Positions 10,234-23,125 of a stretch of DNA of 64,000 nucleotides are shown here, in pieces (the first letter of the stretch is position 1; the number at the start of each line of letters is the position of its first letter). Position numbers and translations under genes: made by a program. Source of the DNA: Raja brachyura (taxonomy: Eukaryota); the NCBI GenBank assembly GCA_963514005.1, contig OY740807.1, forward strand, positions 2,108,001-2,172,000. The letters run 5' to 3'. Below the pieces are notes generated by a model. That model made no database searches, had not been told where the DNA came from, and saw only the letters and a program-made list of their open reading frames with translations.

Positions 10234-11325
10234 ATGCAACGCTCCCCCCCCGCTGGTACTGGTAAAAAACTTACAAGAAGGGAAATAGGCCCCGTTGGAG
10301 CCCTGAGCTCGAGTTTGGCTGCTTCCCAAGAGGAGATCTCACAGAGGAAATCTGAAATGGAGGAACTTAAAAACACTATCCTAGGTGAGATGAAGAAAAT
10401 GCTTAAAGATATGAAGAAGGATTATAAAGCTGATATAAAAAATTTAAGAGCTGATATTCTGGTGTTTCATGAGAGAATTAAAGAAGATTTAAAAAATGAA
10501 GTTATAGAGACGGTAAAGATTATGATGAACGAGTGGAAAGAAAAGGCTGATGCTGAGTTACAAAACCAAATGGCGGAGATAAAGGACAAAGCTGCTGGGA
10601 TTGAAAGAATGCTGGATGACAAGATAGATCCTATTTTAATCTCGCTCGACCAACAAAATGAGGCAATTAAAGAGCTAACTGAGCTTGCTGTATTAAATAC
10701 TAAGGAGAGAGAGAAGCTCCGCTCCGAGAACAAACGTCTATCAGAATTATTACGCAAAATAAACGAGAAATGTATCGATTTGGAGGGATGTCAACGGCGT
10801 AAGAATTTGCGGATAGTTAGTTTGAGTGAGGGTCGCGAGGGAAATCAAGACCCTCGAAAATTTGTTGCAAAACTACTAAAGGATATTTTGAATCTGGATC
10901 AAGAACCCCTGTTGGGCCGTGCACACAGGGCATTAAGACGGGCTCCCAGGAGAGACGCGCCTCCAAGACAAATGATTGTAAAGGTGGCTTACGATCATGT
11001 TTTTGAAGATATGATGAAAATAATAATACGTATGAAAAATCTTAAGTACGAAGGGGATAATATTAGTATCTTCAGAGATTACCCTGCGGAAGTGGCCAAG
11101 AGAAGATCTTTATTCACAGAAACAAGAGGTGTTCTGAGGAATATAAAGGATACAAAGGATCTGAGATATGGCCTGATGTACCCAGCAACATTAAGAGTAA
11201 CCTACAACGATAAGGAGTACCGTTTCGTTAAACATACAGAAGCACTGGAATTCGCTCGAAACATACAGAAGGAAACAGAAGAGGAAGAAGAGCAAGTGGA
11301 TCAAGAACAAGAAGATGACGACTGA
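10234..11325 (+). CDS. L1 ORF1 protein (coiled coil + RRM/CTD, Transposase_22-like), intact, 363 aa
   Basis: DLEGCQRRKNLRIV, RAHR, IFRDY and YPATLRV motifs. Confidence 0.9.
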   Translation: MQRSPPAGTGKKLTRREIGPVGALSSSLAASQEEISQRKSEMEELKNTILGEMKKMLKDMKKDYKADIKNLRADILVFHERIKEDLKNEVIETVKIMMNEWKEKADAELQNQMAEIKDKAAGIERMLDDKIDPILISLDQQNEAIKELTELAVLNTKEREKLRSENKRLSELLRKINEKCIDLEGCQRRKNLRIVSLSEGREGNQDPRKFVAKLLKDILNLDQEPLLGRAHRALRRAPRRDAPPRQMIVKVAYDHVFEDMMKIIIRMKNLKYEGDNISIFRDYPAEVAKRRSLFTETRGVLRNIKDTKDLRYGLMYPATLRVTYNDKEYRFVKHTEALEFARNIQKETEEEEEQVDQEQEDDD

Positions 11326-13563
11326 ACTTTTACAACCCACCTGCGGTTATGAATTATTCATGGAGAAGGAGGAGGAATAATGGACATGGACTTTAATTTT
11401 GGTTTAAAGAGAGATGGATAGATTATTAATAAATAAATTAGTACATTATAGTTTTGTATTATCTATCCTTTAAAAATGTCAATTATTCCCCTAACATAGT
11501 ATCATTTACCCTCCCTAACATTGTATTACTTATCATAATATTAATTATAATAGATACTAGTAACATGAATTATTACTAAGTATATAAATTTAGCACCCCA
11601 CCCCAATATATGCAGCATTTAAGATTGGAGCTGGAATTATTAACATCTTTTTTTTTAAACAGAAGTCAGTAGCCACGTTAGTGTGGCTTACACTAACACA
11701 CACTACACTATATATAGGTGTAGTTACTTTTTTTTCTGGGCACTTTATTAACATCCTTCAATTCACTTTCACTCACATTTTTCATTATTTTTGGTATATT
11801 AGATATTTGATTTTATATTATACAGTATATGAATATATTTACGATTGGTATTACATAATTAGTTTAAGGAGACGTGTATATGGAATAGTAAGACATATAT
11901 TAATTTTCATCAATCCAATGTCTGGGTATAATGTTGAGTTTGACGGGCCGAGACGGCTACTCCAATATAAACCGCCTTAACAGTAAAATGCAAGATATTA
12001 ATGGGAAGACTGGGGGTAATGGAATCACCTTCTGTAGTTGGAATGTTAAGGGAATTAATGAACCAATTAAAAGAGGTAAGGTGTTAGCTCAATTAAACAG
12101 ATTGAAATCAGATGTTACTTTTGTTCAAGAGACTCACCTCAAAAAAGATGCTCGACACAGATTAACAGCTAAATGGATTTCGAAAGTGTATCACTCCTCA
12201 TTTATACATAAGTCTAGAGGGGTAGCAATAATTATTCGTAAAGGTATACCTTTTAAACTAAGTTCTATAATAGAGGATACAGAGGGTAGATATGTAATAA
12301 TTACAGGGGAATTATACTCTAAAAAAGTAATCCTAATGAATATATATGCCCCTAACTTTGATAACCCATTATTTTTTCAGAAAATATTTAATAATATCCC
12401 TATATCTGCTTAATATAACTTAATAATTGGAGGTAATTTCAATTGTACTTTAGATAACTATTTAGATAGATCTTCAACGAAAAGGAAAGCTATCTCTAAG
12501 TCAAGTAAACTTATAAATTATTTTATTAGTACAGCAAATGTTAAGGATATCTGGAGAATAGATAACCCATTGGGACGAGAATATTCTTTTTTCTCGCCTG
12601 TATTCGGAACTTATTCGAGGATAGATTATTTTTTAATAGATTCAAAATTACTTCCATTTACGTATGATGCAAAATATCATAATATTATTATTTTGGATCA
12701 CGCTCCACTAACATTTAAGATAAAATTAAAAGATATAATTATTAAAACTCCTAACTGGAGGCTTAATCCCGAAATATTAAAGGACAAGGCTTGTTATGAT
12801 TACCTGGTAAAACAGATTAAATTATTCTTTGAAACTAATGACAAACCTGAAATTTCACCATCACTTCTTTGGGATACATTTAAAGCATTCATACGCAGTG
12901 CAATAATATCAGCACAAGCATATTTTAACAAAGAAAATCGAAAGACGGAACAAAAGTTGGAAAAGGAGATAAAACAATTAGATATTGAGAATACAAAATA
13001 TCCTTCTAAAGTGCTAAGTAATAAAATTGCATTATTAAAATATAAACTAAATAAAATATACTCTAACCAAGTAATTAAACTTTATCAACAAACTAAACAA
13101 GTGCACTTTGAATTTGGAGATAAACCGCAAAAACTGTTGGCTCGACAACTCAGAAAACGAGATGATGAAAAAATGATACATAGAATTAGATCTGAGCATT
13201 GAAATATATCGACCTTACCAAAAGATATCAATGATATATTTTTACAATATTATCAAAGTCTTTATTCATCTAAAATAACAGGACAAACGGATGGAATGGA
13301 TACATTCCTACAAAAATGTAATATTAACAGCTTAGATCAGGGAGGTAGAGACTTGTTAAACGCTGATATATCAATAAAAGATATTGAAGAATCAATCGGA
13401 TCGTTAAATAATGGAAAGGCTGCGGGCCCTGATGGCCTGAGTGCAGAATTTTATAAGAAATTTCAAGATCTGAAACCCCAAGATTACATACAGTGTATAA
13501 ATATACATATGAACAAGGAAAATTGCCGGAATCTTTAAATGAATCTACAATTACACTTATTCC

Positions 13564-13791
13564 ATATAACGATATAACAATTACAGCACGGAAACAGGCC
13601 ATCTCGGCCCTTCAAGTCCGTGCCGAACAACTTTTTTCCCTTAGTCCCACCTGCCTGCACTCATACCATAACCCTCCATACCCTTCTCATCCATATGCCT
13701 ATCCAATTTATTTTTAAATGATACCAACGAACCTGCCGCCACCACTTCCACTGGAAGCTCATTCCACACCGCTACCACTCTCTGAGTAAAG
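13564..13791 (-). mobile_element. CR1 family A 3' fragment inserted in L1 ORF2
   Basis: TSD TTATTCC at 13557-13563 and 13792-13798; removing it restores TITLIPKVDKDLEDPGSYR. Confidence 0.9.
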
Positions 13792-14194
13792 TTATTCCTA
13801 AGGTTGACAAGGATTTGGAAGACCCAGGATCATATAGAGCAATTGCTCTTTTAAACACAGATCAAAAAATATTAGCTAAAGTTTTATCTCGGAGATTAAG
13901 TTTGGTGATCACTAAAATAATACATCATGATCAAACAGGTTTTCTCCAAAACGTTATTCATCCCATAATTTGAGACGATTATTTAATATTTTACTTCGGA
14001 GTCACGTGAGTGACTTCGTGAAGACCCCGCCAACACGCATGCGCGGCATATCCTCGCGCGCATTTGCTCACGGCAGCTGGGGGGGGGGGGTGCGCTCCCT
14101 CAACCGGCTCCTTCAAAAAGGTAAGCAGCTGCAGGTAAGTTAACCTTAAGCTGGTTTGTCGTTTTTGTGTGGTCTGTGTTGTGTTTACAGAGCC

Positions 14195-15982
14195 ATGGAA
14201 GGAGGAAGGAGTGGGAGTCGCGTTCAGCGAGTAAAGTCCTCGGAGCTGCCCGCTACATCGGGAGCAGCTGAGACACCACCGAGGAAGAAGTCGCGGCAGT
14301 CGGGGAGCTCTGAGCAGCTGACCAGACCCGGCACAACCCCTCTGGCAAAGAAGAGGGTGTCCGCGCAGGAGCAGGGGCTGGGAGACCCTGACTCCAGAAC
14401 TCCAGTGCCCAAGTCCAGGGCTGGAGGTAAGGCACGTGGGGCTCTTGAAGCAAGCGTGTCCGCGAGTGCATCCCCCCCTTTAAAGGTCCCTCGCGGGCAG
14501 AGCAGGGGGGAAGCCTCGCTAAAGTCCAGCCTTGTCGGTACGGCAGGCAGGGACAAGCCACTGGGTAAACCTGCGAGGAAGCAGACCAGTGGCAGTGCTG
14601 GCGTGCCGAGGATCCCTGTGGGGGCAGGATGTACCGGCACACCCCCAGAACAGGCTGCCGTAGTGCGGGCCGGTGGCAGCAAAGTACGGTCCGGCGCCCC
14701 TGCTGAGGCGGGTAGAGCAGACCATGCGCCGCCACAGTCCCGTTTATGTGTGGAACACTGTGGTGGTAAGCCCGCACGGACATCAGAGAGCCCAGTTTCT
14801 GGTGCAAGTACTGACTCTAGCCCTCTTCCCTCCCATCAGACAGAGGGGCCGCTGCTGTCCAAACGACGGCGGACCAGCGGTGTGTCCGTGTGGGAGTCGC
14901 ACAGCCCCGCTGGAGTGGGAGCTGGCGATTTCCCGGCAGTACATTCCGTGAGGGTGTTGACAACTGCTGGAAGCCCCGGTTCCTCTGGAGAGGCTGGGGA
15001 AGACGACCAGTGGCCCGCGTACAGCGGTGACGGTCGTATCGGCCGGTTGGAGCATATGGTGGAGGTGCTCTATCAACGGGACCTGGAGCATCAGGAACGG
15101 GAATCCCAGAGGTCTGGGAGCTACATGCAGCCGCCACCTTCCATCTCCCCGTCGCTTGAGAGCCAGCAAGGAAGTATGGGTGAGCCTGAGGAGGGAGAAG
15201 AGTTCCAGAACCCACAGGAAATGTTGGAGGCGGTGTCGAAATTTGGGTCACCTGCGTCAGCAGGGGGACCACTACATCCCAAAATAGCGGCGTCAATCGA
15301 TTTCCTGACTACGCACCAGCTCCAGGATACCGTGCTCTCGGAAACAGTGGGGAAGTATAAGGCACCAGCAAACTGCAACTCCCTCAACGTACCGAAAGTG
15401 AATGCAGCAATATGGGGGAACATGTCGGCCAACACAAGGGTCAAGGAGGGCAAGCTCCAGAAAATCTTAAAGCTGCTGACAGCAGGTATCACGGCTTTTG
15501 CTCGGTCGCTGGATGCCACGAATGTGTCCGAGGAGCAGCAGGATGCGCTAGCGCTTCTGTGCACCACCCAGTTTGAGATAAACTGTTTTAGGAAGAGCTC
15601 CATCCGGCCAAATTTGAATCCCAAATTTGCGGGATTATGCAGCACCTCCACCGCACCACCACCACCAAGGCAGCTGTTTGGAGAAGACCTGCCTAATCGC
15701 GTGAAGGAACTGGACGAGGAAGCCAAGACTGTGGGGATGATGAGACAGTCTCATTCATCCAAAACTCCCGTTTACACCAGGCAGCAGCCACGTTCCTCGT
15801 TCAGGCCCCACACACCGGTGGACCAAGGCCCCAGAACATATTCACAAACATATTCCTCGTCGGGGGCCCAACAGCAGAGGCCTTTTTTATTCCAAGGCCA
15901 GCCCAAGCCAGCTTGGAAGATGCGGCAACAGGGCCGCGCCACACGGGGAGCAAAGACACCACAGTCCAGACCCCGGCGCTAA
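14195..15982 (+). CDS. DIRS ORF1 (Gag-like), 595 aa from the Kozak ATG
   Basis: GCCATGG at 14192-14198; low-complexity N-terminus; PKVN..IW, DALALL, IRP.L and LFG.DL motifs typical of DIRS ORF1. Confidence 0.8.
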   Translation: MEGGRSGSRVQRVKSSELPATSGAAETPPRKKSRQSGSSEQLTRPGTTPLAKKRVSAQEQGLGDPDSRTPVPKSRAGGKARGALEASVSASASPPLKVPRGQSRGEASLKSSLVGTAGRDKPLGKPARKQTSGSAGVPRIPVGAGCTGTPPEQAAVVRAGGSKVRSGAPAEAGRADHAPPQSRLCVEHCGGKPARTSESPVSGASTDSSPLPSHQTEGPLLSKRRRTSGVSVWESHSPAGVGAGDFPAVHSVRVLTTAGSPGSSGEAGEDDQWPAYSGDGRIGRLEHMVEVLYQRDLEHQERESQRSGSYMQPPPSISPSLESQQGSMGEPEEGEEFQNPQEMLEAVSKFGSPASAGGPLHPKIAASIDFLTTHQLQDTVLSETVGKYKAPANCNSLNVPKVNAAIWGNMSANTRVKEGKLQKILKLLTAGITAFARSLDATNVSEEQQDALALLCTTQFEINCFRKSSIRPNLNPKFAGLCSTSTAPPPPRQLFGEDLPNRVKELDEEAKTVGMMRQSHSSKTPVYTRQQPRSSFRPHTPVDQGPRTYSQTYSSSGAQQQRPFLFQGQPKPAWKMRQQGRATRGAKTPQSRPRR

Positions 15983-17916
15983 CCTTGGAGGTAAGGGGGC
16001 TTGGTTCCGTCCACAACGTAGCATTAGTAACCTCACCGGTGGGGGGACGGCTACGGGGTTTTCGGTCTGCTTGGGATACCCTAACTACGGATCCTTTTAT
16101 TTTACAAAGCATTCAGGGTTATGAGATAGAGTTTATTAATGGCAGAGATCCCCCTTCGCAACATGAGCCTAGTCGCAGATTTGCACTCTCTCAGTCAGAG
16201 AAGGAGCGGGCTCATGTTGAGATACTACGATTAGAAAAGAAAGGGGTGATACAAAAAACGACGCACGAGCCATTGGAGTTTGTTTCCAACATCTTTACTA
16301 GGGTTAAGAAGAATGGAGGCTGTCGGATTATCATCGACTTAACCCAGTTGAATGCTTTCGTACAATATACCCATTTTAAGATGGAGACGTTTGAGACGGC
16401 CAAGCAGTTGGTTAGTCATGGGTACTTTATGGCTTGCATTGATCTGAAGGATGCATACTATACAGTCCCTATTGCTGAACAACATCGAAGGTTCTTGAAG
16501 TTTGTCTGGGAAGGTCAATTATGGCAATATATGGCTTTGCCAAATGGGATTACAACAGCGCCGAGACTATTTACTAAAATTGTTAAACCTTTATTGGCAC
16601 ATCTCAGGAAACAAAACCATGTTATAATGGCATATTTAGATGACATTTACATAGCAGGGAAAACCCTAGAGCACGCCCAGTTGGCAGTCTCGGCCGCTAT
16701 ATCTTTGTTTCAAAGAATGGGGTTTGTAATCCATCCAGACAAATCCAAGTTCAACCCTTCGCAGGTCATGGACTATTTGGGGTTCACTATAGACACTAAC
16801 CAGATGAAAATCACCGTCCCAGTTGACAAAGTGGTGGACGTTCAACAGGCATGCATCAGTTTGTTTGACAACAACAGGCCAACCATTCGGCAGGTTGCTA
16901 AGGTAATTGGCAAGCTGGTTGCCACGTTCCCGGCCGTGAATTATGGTCCGTTGCATTACCAAAACTTACAAAAAAGTAAAATTCTGGCGTTAAAATTGAA
17001 TAACGGACATTTTGACAGACCTATGCGCTTAGGCATAGGGGAGCAAACTGAATTGGAATGGTGGGTTCATAATATTGGAGTAAGTTCCAAACCCATCATT
17101 CTCCCCAATCCTACGGTTCTGTTGCAAACTGATGCGAGTGCCCAAGGCTGGGGGGCAACTGACACTGTAACCAGCTGTGGTGGCAGATGGGACGCTCATG
17201 AGTTCACGCTTCTCCAAGTGCAAGGCATTAATTATTTGGAAATGCTGGGGGTCTTTCATGGACTGCGGGCATATTGCAGTGATTTGCGTCATGCACATGT
17301 CCGCCTTCAAATCGATAATACCACGGTGGTAGCCTATATTAATCATATGGGTGGTATCAGGTCAGTATCTTGTAATGATTTGGCAAATACAATTTGGCTC
17401 TGGTGCATCAAAAGGGGTATTTGGATATCAGCAACGTACCTTCCGGGGATACTCAATACGGTGGCGGACACCAGGTCACGAGTTTTTAATGATAACATTG
17501 AGTGGATGCTGAATCCCCTTGTGTTTGCTGAAATTGTGACAAAATTCAGTATGCCAGATATTGACCTATTTGCGTCTAGACTGAACCATCAGATACCAAC
17601 ATATGTATCGTGGGAACCAGATCCTGGGGCAGTGGCTTTGGATGCTTTTTCACTCCACTGGGGGAAATGGTATTGCTACGCATTTCCCCCATTCTGCCTC
17701 ATCAGCCGGGTATTACAGAAGATTAAATTAGACTCTGCATCAGGCATTCTGGTAATACCCGACTGGCCGACACAACCATGGTACCCGGTGGTCTCCCAGA
17801 TGCTAAAGCACCCGTGGGTGCGAATTGGGAACAACCCACAATTGGTTACTAATCCTGTCACTGGCGAGCCGCATCCGTGCCACGCCTATTTAAACCTGTT
17901 GGTCTGCAGGTTCTGA
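15913..17916 (+). CDS. DIRS ORF2: reverse transcriptase, RNase H and N6-adenine methyltransferase-like domain
   Basis: IDLKDAYY, LPNG, YLDD; TDAS, INYLEM, DNTTVV, N.VAD; IDLFASRLN, YAFPPF. No ATG before the RT domain. Confidence 0.95.
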   Translation: MEDAATGPRHTGSKDTTVQTPALTLEVRGLGSVHNVALVTSPVGGRLRGFRSAWDTLTTDPFILQSIQGYEIEFINGRDPPSQHEPSRRFALSQSEKERAHVEILRLEKKGVIQKTTHEPLEFVSNIFTRVKKNGGCRIIIDLTQLNAFVQYTHFKMETFETAKQLVSHGYFMACIDLKDAYYTVPIAEQHRRFLKFVWEGQLWQYMALPNGITTAPRLFTKIVKPLLAHLRKQNHVIMAYLDDIYIAGKTLEHAQLAVSAAISLFQRMGFVIHPDKSKFNPSQVMDYLGFTIDTNQMKITVPVDKVVDVQQACISLFDNNRPTIRQVAKVIGKLVATFPAVNYGPLHYQNLQKSKILALKLNNGHFDRPMRLGIGEQTELEWWVHNIGVSSKPIILPNPTVLLQTDASAQGWGATDTVTSCGGRWDAHEFTLLQVQGINYLEMLGVFHGLRAYCSDLRHAHVRLQIDNTTVVAYINHMGGIRSVSCNDLANTIWLWCIKRGIWISATYLPGILNTVADTRSRVFNDNIEWMLNPLVFAEIVTKFSMPDIDLFASRLNHQIPTYVSWEPDPGAVALDAFSLHWGKWYCYAFPPFCLISRVLQKIKLDSASGILVIPDWPTQPWYPVVSQMLKHPWVRIGNNPQLVTNPVTGEPHPCHAYLNLLVCRF

Positions 17917-18860
17917 AAAGGCCTTTGATGAACACCGGGATCTCACCGAGGGCCATGGATTTAATCGCTGCATCGTGCAGAGCATCTACAAGACGGCAGT
18001 ACCTGACCCAGATCAGGAAATGGGAGCTATTCTGTTTAAGGAAGAGTGTTGCCTATGATTCTGCCACAATACCTGACGTCCTGGAATTCCTGGCGGGCCT
18101 CCACTATGATGAAGGGCTCAGCTATAGTACCAGGAGCGCGCTGTCCTCGTACCTTCCGGTAGGAGTGGGGACCAACAATCTGGTGTCGAAGTTTATGAGG
18201 GGTGTATTTAACACAAACCCTCCTCGGCCCAGATATAACGCTGTCTGGGATGCAGGAGTTGTCCTGTCCCTGTTAAGGTCATGGTCCCCCATGGTGGGGT
18301 TACCTCTTCACCGGCTCACCCTGAAGGTGGTCATGTTGATGGCGCTCACGTCTGCTCAGCGGGTACAGGCGCTTCAAAAGTTGTGCATTGACAATATGCT
18401 CTCTACCCCTGGGAAAATAACGTTTTACGTTGCAGAACTGCTGAAGCAGCATCGACCCGGATCTTTGGGGCTGCAGTTGGAATTCCAGGCGTACCCCTCT
18501 GATGCCACACTCTGCACAGTCGCCCACCTCCGTTGCTACATTGAGTTGACCCGGTCGATCAGGAATTCGGAACAAGGACTGCTTATCAGCCACAAAAAAC
18601 CACATCGCCGGGTGACAGTGCAGACGATCTCCAGGTGGCTCAGGGAAGTGTTGGATGCAGCGGGTATTGACACTAACTTGTTTAAATCTCATTCCACCAG
18701 GGCTGCATCCACATCAACAGCGAGGGCCATGGAGGTGCCCATGGATCACGTCCTCGCTACGGCAGGATGGGCCAGTGAGTCAACCTTTCAACGGTTCTAC
18801 CATAAGCCATTGGCCGGACCTGCAACATATGCGGATGCAGTACTCAGGGCTGCTCCCTAA
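17877..18860 (+). CDS. DIRS ORF3: tyrosine recombinase
   Basis: SAQR, LLKQ, SHSTR, AGW and FQRFY fit the R-K-H-R-W-Y catalytic pattern; first ATG at 17928. Confidence 0.93.
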   Translation: MPRLFKPVGLQVLKRPLMNTGISPRAMDLIAASCRASTRRQYLTQIRKWELFCLRKSVAYDSATIPDVLEFLAGLHYDEGLSYSTRSALSSYLPVGVGTNNLVSKFMRGVFNTNPPRPRYNAVWDAGVVLSLLRSWSPMVGLPLHRLTLKVVMLMALTSAQRVQALQKLCIDNMLSTPGKITFYVAELLKQHRPGSLGLQLEFQAYPSDATLCTVAHLRCYIELTRSIRNSEQGLLISHKKPHRRVTVQTISRWLREVLDAAGIDTNLFKSHSTRAASTSTARAMEVPMDHVLATAGWASESTFQRFYHKPLAGPATYADAVLRAAP

Positions 18861-19027
18861 TATCATTTGTCCCCAGTCAGGGGGTTTTGTTTATGATTTG
18901 TGTTTAATAAATGTTAATTATTTTCAGATTGTCCAGTCTGGATTGCTTTAACAAACTTCCTCCATCAGGATTGCGGCAGTGTGGTAGCATGGGCGTTGTC
19001 CAGGGCGTGTAATCACAGAGCTTTGAA

Positions 19028-19141
19028 GTCTTCACGAAGTCACTCACGTGACTCCGAAGTAAAATAGTAAGATTAAACAAGAACTTACCAGTTCGAAGGT
19101 TGATCTTTATTTTATGAGGAGTTGCGATGAGGGATTTCGTG
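19028..19141. repeat. DIRS internal complementary region (ICR)
   Basis: First part is the reverse complement of 13989-14025; second part is the reverse complement of about 19280-19356 with one mismatch. Confidence 0.93.
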
Positions 19142-19955
19142 CCCTCCGCTCCCAACCCTCGATCATTATGTTCAGCTGGGTAGTTCGCAGTTTAATCTTA
19201 ATATCCTTACTTTTCGTCGAGTCTGTGATTCCACACCGCTGCTTTGAAGGATGCCGCGCATGCGTGTTGGCGGGGTCTTCACGAAATCCCTCATCGCAAC
19301 TCCTCATAAAATAAAGATCAACCTTCGAACTGGTAAGTTCTCGTTTAATCTTACTATTATATACTCAAAAAGAGTATGTGATACGGAATTAGCTGTTATA
19401 TCCTTAGATGCAGAAAAAGCATTCGATCAGGTTGAATGGCCATATTTATTTAAAATAATGGAGAAATTCCAATTGGGGGATAGATTTTGTAAATGGGTAA
19501 GAATTCTATATTCGAATCCTACTGCAAGAATATTAACTAACCAAATATTATCAGCTAAATTTAAGCTTTATAGGGGTTGTAGACAAGGATGTCCGCTATC
19601 GCCTTTGTTATTCGCTCTGGTGATAGAGCCTTTAGCTGAATGGATTAGATCTGAACCAGAAATATATGGATATAATACTGAAACTACAACAAATAAAATA
19701 TCTCTATATGCAGATGATGTCTTAATTTATATTACAAACCCGGAGATTAGTATTCCCAAGCTATTTAATGTTATAACTAAATTTAGTACATTTTCTGGAT
19801 ATAGAATTAATTGGAATAAAAGTGATATTATGCCTATAACTGGGATAAGATCAAATATATTGCAACAATACCCACTAAAAAAGTAGTTACGGACAAATTT
19901 AATTATTTAGGTATTAATGTATCTAAATCCTATAACTCATTAATTAAATCTAATT

Positions 19956-20472
19956 CAAAGTCAAAGTCAAAGTCAAACAAACTTTATTGTCATTTAGAAA
20001 TACATTGATACATGCAGTTCCAAATGAAATTACGTTGCATTTGGCTCCCTGTGCAACACAATAAATTAACCGAAGGATAGGCATGGGTGAAAAGGATAAA
20101 TAGACAATAGTGGCAGCCCATTACATGGCATTCAGGAGTCTGATGGCTCGTGGGAAGAAGCTGTTGCAGAACCTTGATGTTCTGCTCCTTATGCTGCGGT
20201 ATCTTTTTCCCGAGGGCAGCAGAGTGAACAGTCCGTGATGGAGATGAGTGGGGTCTTTTATAATACTGCTGGCCTTAGACACACAGCGTTTGGTCGCAAT
20301 ATCCCCGATTGAGGGGAGAGAGGTCCCGATGATTTTCTCCGCTGTCCTCACCACTCTCTGCACAGACTTCCAGTCGGAGGCTCTACAGTCCCCAAACCAG
20401 ACAGAGATACAGCTGGTCAGAATACTCTCTATGGTGCCCCTGTAGAAAGTAGTGAGGATGGGATGGGGGACC
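19956..20472 (-). mobile_element. Rex1/Babar LINE 3' fragment inserted in L1 ORF2
   Basis: FYRGTIESILTSCISVWFG...DPTH...LPSGKRYRS...SFFPRAIRLLN; (TTTGAC)n tail; AATT TSD. Confidence 0.88.
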
Positions 20473-22399
20473 AATTATCCACAATTATTAGATAAACTTA
20501 GAAAAAATATTTTATATTGGAAAACACTTCCTATATCTATGATTGGTAGAATAAATGCTATAAAAATGATTTTTTTACCACAACTGTTATATTTGTTTCA
20601 AGCTATTCGCTTTTATCTCCCGAAAACTTTTTTTTTTTTAATTGGTAACATTGTTAATAGTTTTATCTGGGACTATAAAAATCATAGAATAAGTAAAAAA
20701 CATTTATGTAAATCCAAAATAAATGGAGGATTAGCACTTCCAATTTTTTTGTACTATTTCTGGGCAGTTCAGATTAAGAATATGAATTTTTGGTGGGTAA
20801 ATTTGGATCATGAACCAATGTGGTTAAAGATGGAAAAGGAAGATTGTTTACCTTTTAATGTAGGTTCAATTCTTTTTGCGCCAAGAGAAGTACAAAAAAA
20901 AATTTATAGGGACAACCCTATAATTCATAGTAATAGACGTATTTGGAAACAAATAGTTAAGACTTTACATTTAGATAATTTGTCACTTAACCTACCGATT
21001 ATGAATAATCCTTTATTTAAACCCTCTATATTAGATAGGGGGTTTAGACATTGGGATGATTTAGGAATTAAAAGGATAGAACACCTGTACAGAAAGGGAA
21101 AATTTCTTTCATTTCAGGAGTTACAAGATATTTATGGATTACCGTCACATAATTTGTTTAGGTATTTACAAATTAGAGATTATATTAAGTCTAACATACA
21201 AGATTATAAAAATAAAGAACCAGGATTATTAGATGAATTGTTTAATAAACACCCAAACACAGGAAAATTAATAGCTTATATATATAATATTATTTTGGAT
21301 AGGGAGAATCCAACAACAGAAATATATCGTCAAGCATGGGAAAATGAAATAGGTTTATCTATAACGAAAGAAACTTGGGAAGAAAGTTTACAACGTATAC
21401 ATCGTTGTTCGTTAAATGCTAGGCATACATTGATACAATTTAAAGTATTATATAGATTACATTATTCAAAAACCAAATTAAATAGAATTTTTCCTAACGT
21501 TTCTCCTATTTGTGATAAATGTCAGAATTTAGAGGCTAATTTAACACATAGTTTTGTAACGTGTTCAAAACTTAGTTATTATTGGACAGAAATCTTTAGA
21601 GTTATTTCTGAAGTTCTTAGAGTTAAACTGGATCCAGATCCAAAGTTAATAATATTAGGAATTCCGGACTCAAAATTGGTATTAACAGTAAATCAAAGAA
21701 ATTTCTTTGATTACTGTTTGATAATAGGGAAAAAAATAATATTGAAATTTTGGAAGGGAACATTAACCTCCATAATTAAAATGTGGACAGCAGAGGTGTC
21801 GGAGACGTTGTATTTGGAAAGAATCAGATTTGTCCTAATGGACAAATGTGAAATCTTTGAACAAATATGGTCTCCATTTATACAATATTTGAAGGGATAG
21901 CTGTTCTTGGCATCACAACTCAATGGGTACTCGACAGGATTTGATGAAAATAACTCATTTTCAAACTGGGATTTGTATACATGTCTTTACAATATGATGA
22001 TATTATCATTTGTAATAGTTTTATTTACAATATATTTTGTTGTTTCTCTTTTAAATATATATATAATACCTTTTATTGTTTTTAAAAGGGAAATATATAT
22101 ATATTGAATAGATGTATATTAACTAGTGTTTTTTCTTTTTTTTTCTTTCTTTTTTTTTTCTTTCTCTTTACTTTTTTATATTATCAAAATTATTATTTAA
22201 TCACAACCTTTGTTGATTTAAAACCTATTCTTTTTTCTTTTTCTCTCTATTTCTAAAAAACAGAAGATAATAATAATCAATGTGATATTTGTACAATTAC
22301 TGAATTAAGTTGGTATTTGTAAATTTGTTTTCTCATTGTGAAATGTTTACTTCTAATAAAAATATTATTTAAAAAAAAAGAAATAAAAAGACAGAAAAA

Positions 22400-22560
22400 G
22401 ACTCAAAGTGCTGGAGTAACTCAGCAGATCCGGCAGCATATCCAGCGAGCCAGGATAGGTGATGTTTCAAGTTAGGACCCTTATTCAGACTGATTGTAAG
22501 GGATGGAGGGGAAGAAAGCAACACGAGAGGAGGGGCAGGACAAAGTGTGGCAGGTAATAG
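22400..22560 (-). repeat. Short Penelope-terminus-related repeat, degenerate
   Basis: CAAAGTGCTGGAGTAACTCAGC...GACCCTTATTCAGACTGA, similar to copies at about 28850, 29110 and 52830. Confidence 0.55.
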
Positions 22561-22624
22561 TAGAATTGGTGATGAGATCGTAAACAGTCTGGGAGATGAT
22601 GGCCGTCTGTTTGTCGGATGATTG

Positions 22625-23125
22625 GGGATGATCAGCCATGATCACATTGAATGGCGGTGCTGGCTCAAAGGGCCAGATGGGCCTACTACTGCACCTATCT
22701 TTATTCTTTGGAGCACAGAAGGCTAAGGGGGGATTTGATTGAGGTCTTTAAAATGATGAAAGGGATAGACAGAGTTGACGTGGATAAGCTTTTCCCATTG
22801 AGGATAGGGAAGATTCAAACAAGAGGGCATGACATGAGAATGAAGGGACAGAAGTTTAGGGGTAACATGAGGGGGAACTTCTTTACTAAGAGAGTGGTGG
22901 CTGTGTGGAATGATCTTTCAGCAGAAGTGGTGGAGGCAGGATCGATTTTAACATTTAAAAGTAAAGTGGTTAGGTATATGGACGGAAAGGGAATGGAGGG
23001 GTATGGTCTGAGTGCAGGTAGATGGGACTAGGGGAAAATAAATGGTCGGCACGGACTGGAAGTGCTGAGAAGGCCTGTTTCCGTGCTGTAATTGTTATAT
23101 GGTTATATGGTTATATGGTTATTGT
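22625..23125 (+). mobile_element. CR1 3' ends (family B tail followed by a family A 3' end)
   Basis: YSLEHRRLRGDLIEVFK...; (GTTATATG)n tail. Confidence 0.85.

Follow-up and report, generated by a model that had tools for sequence, protein, structure and literature searches.

DIRS1-like retrotransposons have been described (Piednoel et al. 2011, PMC3266345) as elements with three open reading frames (ORFs) that combine a pol gene for reverse transcriptase (RT), RNase H and methyltransferase with a tyrosine recombinase (YR) gene, carry an internal complementary region and are bounded by inverted termini; the portions of that paper covered here describe the overlaps between these ORFs without an expression mechanism, splicing or introns. 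In other systems, the slippery heptamer of HIV-1 is U UUU UUA (PMC4373837), and Ty1/Copia elements use alternative splicing to obtain an excess of Gag, according to the portions covered of Oberlin et al. 2017 (PMC5580714). Here we analyzed a 64,000-nucleotide stretch of the Raja brachyura genome (assembly GCA_963514005.1, contig OY740807.1, positions 2,108,001 to 2,172,000), hereafter the window, which carries an intact DIRS1-like retrotransposon at 13988-19358 (window coordinates; all features lie on the forward strand). We propose, with a probability of about three in four, that the three genes of this element are expressed from the Gag start codon through a single -1 frameshift at 15883-15889 and a single optional intron downstream of it, at 15991-17909.

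ORF1 (14195-15982, 595 amino acids, with its ATG at 14195 and its stop codon at 15980-15982) has no Pfam match and is a putative Gag by its position in DIRS1 elements, as these are described in the portions of PMC3266345 covered here. ORF2 (15697-17916), the pol gene, comprises RT, an RNase H region and a methyltransferase-like region and has its first ATG only at 16381, while ORF3 is open from 17853 and contains the recombinase exon of 316 codons (17910-18860). A preliminary description, made from the sequence alone, had read these frames as a cascade of two -1 shifts. Its observations are confirmed: TTTTTTA at 15883-15889 is in phase in the Gag frame, TTTAAAC at 17889-17895 is in phase in the Pol frame, the frames, their stops and the first ORF2 ATG lie where it had placed them, and the slip products of 1240 and 1555 amino acids contain no internal stops; of the two ORF3 ATGs that it listed, the one at 17928 is correct and the other lies at 17955 rather than 17956. 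Its interpretation is partly supported and proved half right, since in-phase heptamers are conserved across DIRS families at the first site and not at the second. In the window alone the probability of chance is modest: there are 12 strict heptamers in 4660 positions, for a joint probability of about 0.011, and, for the two overlaps, shuffling yields 0.027 and 0.050 when codons are permuted and 0.10 and 0.019 when letters are.

Under the proposed mechanism, most ribosomes would terminate at the end of ORF1 and release the 595-residue Gag, and a few would slip at T TTT TTA and enter a 34-codon linker in the Pol frame (15889-15990), which is open from the shift site to the predicted splice donor. 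Retention of the 1919-nucleotide GT..AG intron, which contains RT, RNase H and methyltransferase, would then yield a Gag-RT-RNase H-methyltransferase protein of 1240 residues, and its removal a Gag-linker-recombinase protein of 915 residues. Copying, too, would mainly use the unspliced RNA as its template, and fusion to Gag would be expected to co-package the recombinase. The earlier idea of a Gag-linked recombinase made at a fixed low ratio survives in this form, but as a predicted 915-residue protein without RT and not as a 1555-residue polyprotein.

Close copies of the window element are about 99% identical and hence cannot test conservation. Our comparison therefore used 40 loci of other families in the same genome, 71 metagenome loci (drawn from the best 80 among 514 relatives) and a further 21 found in prokaryote assemblies, which were grouped together with the window into 80 families at less than 85% Pol identity, most of them 35-50% identical to the window. 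Counts for the first heptamer and the donor refer to the 65 families with enough upstream DNA, and those for the acceptor motif PPF to 62 of 69 families, the seven without the pattern being dropped; splice sites were scored by simple consensus counts.

Within 300 nucleotides upstream of the GGRL motif, a strict heptamer stands in the shift phase in 49 of the 65 families, compared to 16 and 12 in the other two phases, and for TTTTTTA or AAAAAAC the counts are 40 compared to 3 and 0, against a background in the body of Pol of 111, 82 and 91 of 320 windows for the three phases. The Pol frame is open from the heptamer in 44 of the 65 families, the heptamer is kept in 29 of 30 close copies, and 23 of the 43 Phe-Leu pairs in the Gag frame near the junction are written T TTT TTA. 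In a phylogeny of 47 intact families, U6 or A6C sites (counting TTTTTTG) occur in 33 of the 41 shifted families and in none of the six with Gag and Pol in one frame (three changes), and the two heptamer types alternate on the tree. Predicted folding directly 3' of the site, where a stimulator would be expected 5-9 nucleotides downstream, has a family mean z of -1.1 to -1.2 (37 families), compared to -0.05 and +0.34 at 60 nucleotides to either side. A -1 shift from Gag to Pol at 15883-15889, as first proposed in the preliminary description, is thus strongly supported by conservation. Among the families with Gag and Pol in one frame, L051, L052, L055 and L065, from the same genome, keep the donor, and L079, L090, L093 and L097 present two overlapping donors five nucleotides apart, the first in phase 1 and the second in phase 0; the phase-1 donor could produce Gag with a short tail, substituting for the lost frameshift.

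The predicted donor (15990|15991) lies eight nucleotides past the Gag stop codon at a Pol codon boundary, and the predicted acceptor (17909|17910) at a YR codon boundary, so that the intron is in phase 0 at both ends and its removal would link the frame of Pol with that of the recombinase. Of the 65 families, 55 have a donor scoring at least 7 of 9 in Pol phase 0, compared to 8 and 3 with one in the other phases (background: 52, 69 and 21 of 763), and the donor lies 0-55 nucleotides past the Gag stop in 36 of 37 families. The serine of the linker Val-Ser is encoded by AGY in 37 of 54 cases, compared to 24 of 124 in Pol. Junction-dependent decay follows a 50-55 nucleotide rule, and with a donor this close to the Gag stop the spliced RNA would escape it. 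At the other end, the YR frame is open for at least 180 nucleotides upstream in 52 of 69 families, compared to 1 of 69 for the third frame. In most families the acceptor lies at the FPPF-S motif of the methyltransferase, where the serine is AGY in 38 of 40 families (24% background) and where the YR frame is open from the AG after PPF in 38 of the 40 families with that AG, and in only 5 of the 22 without it; the clade of the window has FPPF-C, with TGCAG at a C-terminal Cys-Arg instead. When the best donor and acceptor were chosen blind to phase, the pair was in frame in 36 of 60 families, tied in 13 and out of frame in 11.

Genomic copies of related families lack exactly this interval. With the junction pattern fixed before the genome was searched, we obtained three exact matches (none in the control) and 107 with at most two mismatches (one in the control). 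In 34 of the 35 that were checked, the end of Gag runs straight into YR at the predicted joint and pol is gone from donor to acceptor; match L211 is not a pol-less copy. On flank trees, from which L284 and L285 were left out, 14 pol-less copies are placed among 18 full-length ones, requiring four changes, three of them forced, and a single clade of pol-less copies is rejected on each flank (p values of the approximately unbiased test 2e-5 and 1e-99). In the pol-less copy L164, the two termini and the heptamer are still present and the linker-YR frame is open. Furthermore, a second intron is predicted in the leader (14121-14190), with donors at 14121 and 14135 and an acceptor AG at 14189-14190, directly before the Gag ATG. 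Its donor and acceptor are similar in sister subfamilies, and it is precisely missing from L287, a full-length sister-family copy that keeps pol; no copy without it was found for the family of the window. Two NCBI gene models from sea urchin (P0121 and P0122) join a linker resembling that of the Pol frame and ending in KE to VLK and the recombinase.

Some further copies and proteins bear on this joint. A non-autonomous, pol-less DIRS subfamily of about 100 copies (including L166-L192 and L213-L218) has a mostly broken YR frame and keeps the internal complementary region and right terminus; its copies L166-L192, 27 in number, have lost the heptamer. L287 shows the same donor-side letters as this subfamily. 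Long recombinase proteins that resemble Gag-YR fusions (P0126-P0134) were rejected as splice evidence, being reading frames of long-overlap elements in which YR can be read without a stop through 300-800 codons across pol, and P0074, P0123-P0125, P0130 and P0131, which join Pol to YR, were set aside as frameshifted copies or gene models.

Several points weigh against a shift followed by an optional splice. Neither step is shown by an RNA read, ribosome profile or peptide, none of the data sets listed as containing the sequence is recorded as RNA, and the contigs of four runs, one of them only guessed to be RNA, gave 12 listed joints, none at the predicted sites, which is no evidence either way. 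The fold downstream of the first heptamer in the window itself is unexceptional (z near 0), and 21 of the 65 families lack a strict open-frame heptamer, nine of these being in-frame fusions and some others broken or carrying TTTTTTG. The splice scores are a consensus count of our own, and the acceptor co-variation amounts to about five changes on the tree, two of them forced, so that its Fisher p is overstated and we regard it as good but not overwhelming evidence. About 100 of the 107 junction matches belong to one amplified subfamily and hence represent few independent events, recombination between copies could lower the count of forced changes, and the joint carries a 4-nucleotide microhomology, AGGT, so that a deletion could yield the same letters. 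A pol-less copy was found neither for the window's own family, in the junction matches listed or in a search of that family, nor for the L053 family among the matches listed; splicing in the window family is accordingly argued from homology. Lastly, L164 retains the leader intron, and the sea-urchin gene models are predictions, with a linker that shows no significant match to that of the window.

Of the alternatives, the one that survives best, although we consider it unlikely, accepts the -1 shift for Pol and has the recombinase expressed independently, by a splice from the leader donor to the YR acceptor, from an internal promoter or by re-initiation at the ATGs at 17928 or 17955, with the Gag-linker splice mainly producing a Gag-only message. 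The window does have both ATGs, some in-frame ATG is found in 47 of 69 families, the leader intron is real in the sister family, and the spliced RNA does encode plain Gag. Yet no in-frame ATG precedes the start of YR in the other 22 families, the ATG at 17928 is missing in the two nearest families, and no copy spliced from leader to YR was found in the sister family, nor for the family of the window; furthermore, a Gag-only purpose needs neither a donor and acceptor in phase 0 nor a YR frame open from the acceptor. The preliminary description had named a spliced RNA placing ORF3 behind its own start codon as evidence against its cascade; a spliced RNA does appear to apply, but it would fuse the post-shift linker to the recombinase.

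That cascade, in which two consecutive -1 shifts produce Gag, Gag-Pol and a Gag-Pol-recombinase polyprotein of 1555 residues, is very unlikely to account for the recombinase. Besides both heptamers being in phase and the products open, it can draw on a YR frame that is -1 relative to Pol in 71 of the 74 families that have both, and on TTTAAAC/T being retained in 6 of 6 close copies of the window family and 20 of 20 of the sister family; in these two families the second heptamer may have a minor backup role. Across families, however, heptamers located 120 to 15 nucleotides before the YR anchor show no phase enrichment (7 of 69 in phase, compared to 13 and 3), and the heptamer is missing from 16 of 16 copies of L053, the next family, abundant and intact in the same genome, and from 10 of 18 full-length relatives. 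The dipeptide at this site varies freely in homologous proteins, and the stimulators spotted by hand in the preliminary description, at either heptamer, do no better than shuffles (z -0.21 for 15890-15960 and 0.00 for 17896-17966). Acceptors that lie within Pol motifs account for the fixed phase of YR. The second heptamer, located 15-21 nucleotides upstream of the acceptor, is likely incidental.

It is harder still to credit that there is no functional splice, the resemblance to a donor and an acceptor being a by-product of protein motifs and the pol-less copies having arisen by microhomology deletion. AGGT is indeed common to both ends, EV/QV, FPPF and CR are motifs at the protein level, and none of the pol-less copies found belongs to the family of the window. 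Against this, the synonymous choices described above, for the linker serine and for the serine after PPF, track the splice consensus, the predicted pair recurs in separate lineages although the element contains 62,299 shared 4-mer pairs, and the leader intron is also precisely lost in the sister family. Equally improbable is that the first heptamer is unused and that translation of Pol relies instead on a splice into the overlap with Gag or on an ATG of its own, since, although a Pol-frame ATG precedes GGRL in 21 of 56 shifted families, the other 35, the window included, have none, acceptor-like sites in the overlap show no phase bias (17, 22 and 21), and the heptamers keep to a single phase, alternate between two types and are missing from in-frame fusions.

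The element as a whole conforms to the DIRS1-like type. It begins and ends with ATT, within a left (13988-14049, seen from inverted arms I3 and I4) and a right (19251-19358) inverted terminal repeat, and its internal complementary region (19028-19141) contains an AAT circle junction at 19063-19065; the portions of PMC3266345 covered here describe the same architecture, including ATT ends that match the AAT junction, and no architectural difference from it. ORF2 matches RVT_1 in Pfam (E 6e-20). RNase H and methyltransferase gave no Pfam match in the window Pol protein itself and are assigned through 59 full-length homologues aligned at 41-67% identity, which match RT_RNaseH (16 of 59), Dam (33 of 59) and PCIF1_WW (43 of 59). 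We take YLDD at 16633 to be the RT motif, the RNase H region to start at about 17128 and FPPF at 17683 to mark the methyltransferase-like region. ORF3 falls just below the cut-off for Phage_integrase (E 4e-6, 27.0 bits, cut-off 27.1), its homologues carry PF00589, and the recombinase motifs presumably lie at 18360 (R), 18690 (HSTR) and 18792 (RFYH); a structure search by sequence gave no match to a solved structure for the recombinase. PAT and Ngaro elements have split direct repeats, and Ngaro also lacks the methyltransferase. No long direct repeat was found in 11000-23000, and the repeats of the element are inverted. The G run of about 12 nucleotides in the leader (14079-14091) varies in length among contigs.

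The element is inserted in a decayed long interspersed nuclear element (LINE; 11904-13987 and 19359-21900), which we take from its motifs to be L1/Tx1-like and whose RT it interrupts. There is no target-site duplication beyond the 3-bp crossover: the LINE reads RRLFNI on one side and its reading frame resumes with IYSK on the other, with one ATT shared. This LINE region also holds further inserted fragments, at about 13590-13800 and 19960-20470. Some 280 kb away, a copy (L002/L202, G000 C29:1842483 onward) has the same left flank as the window element and thus represents a segmental or assembly duplicate and no new insertion. Copies or candidates in this genome number at least 6,304, 3,829 and about 1,990 in three groups. 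Of the 21 loci found in bacterial or archaeal metagenome assemblies (L142-L162), 11 are labelled Sedimenticola, and host-animal contamination is their most likely origin; a scan of viral contigs revealed no relative.

Taken together, these data make it reasonably probable that short-overlap DIRS1 elements across animals share one logic, in which a single -1 shift gates both enzymes and a pol-spanning optional intron picks Gag-RT or Gag-recombinase. The acceptor would ancestrally lie in the FPPF-S motif of the methyltransferase and would have moved to other Pol motifs several times, and the spliced RNA could itself be copied and would found non-autonomous families. DIRS elements are abundant in animal genomes, and the translation of their start-less pol and recombinase genes is unexplained in the portions of the literature consulted. 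The proposed model names exact, testable signals, predicts a Gag-tethered recombinase and supplies protein boundaries for biochemistry; under it, the conserved EV and FPPFS motifs would serve in part as signals in the RNA, and a class of pol-less non-autonomous elements would be accounted for.

Our literature search found no paper linking DIRS with ribosomal frameshifting and no report of a shift combined with a splice in these elements, although two key reviews and the Repbase entries, which lie outside it, may mention either. No such mechanism is stated in the portions covered of PMC3266345, PMC6681497, PMC7192593, PMC3950715, PMC3783388, PMC4495291, PMC9341512, PMC3537659, PMC4157794, PMC5633606 and PMC5580714, and those covered of PMC5009743 do not mention DIRS. 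Each component is familiar by itself, the heptamers being of retroviral type and splicing controlling protein ratios in Ty1/Copia as well; it is their combination in DIRS that is unreported so far as searched.

Compared to long-overlap DIRS1-like elements, the clade of the window has short ORF overlaps. With the -1 Gag-Pol shift of retroviruses and Ty3/Gypsy elements it shares the same two heptamers, a position in the C-terminal overlap of Gag and, on the family average, a modest downstream folding signal; A AAA AAC is the gag-pro heptamer of mouse mammary tumour virus (MMTV). It differs in that what follows the shift would depend on a choice of splicing, in the absence of a protease, and in a recombinase outside pol that replaces the integrase. 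The double shifts of MMTV and human T-lymphotropic virus are not matched, as the second heptamer is not conserved in phase here. Retroviral env is expressed from a spliced subgenomic RNA with a 5' major donor and a start of its own. As with env, a third gene would be reached by removal of pol, but in DIRS the donor is located after the Gag stop, and a Gag fusion would result. The likeness to Ty1/Copia, as far as the portions covered of PMC5580714 describe it, lies in a retained intron giving the full-length Pol-coding RNA, in splicing giving a subgenomic RNA, and in protein ratio as the purpose; there, the splice produces a Gag-only message through a new stop and early termination. The predicted DIRS splice, in contrast, would preserve the reading frame, excise pol completely, bring in a downstream enzyme and need a prior frameshift, and such recoding upstream of a splice choice would be an unusual means of adjusting the amounts of three proteins that share a start codon.

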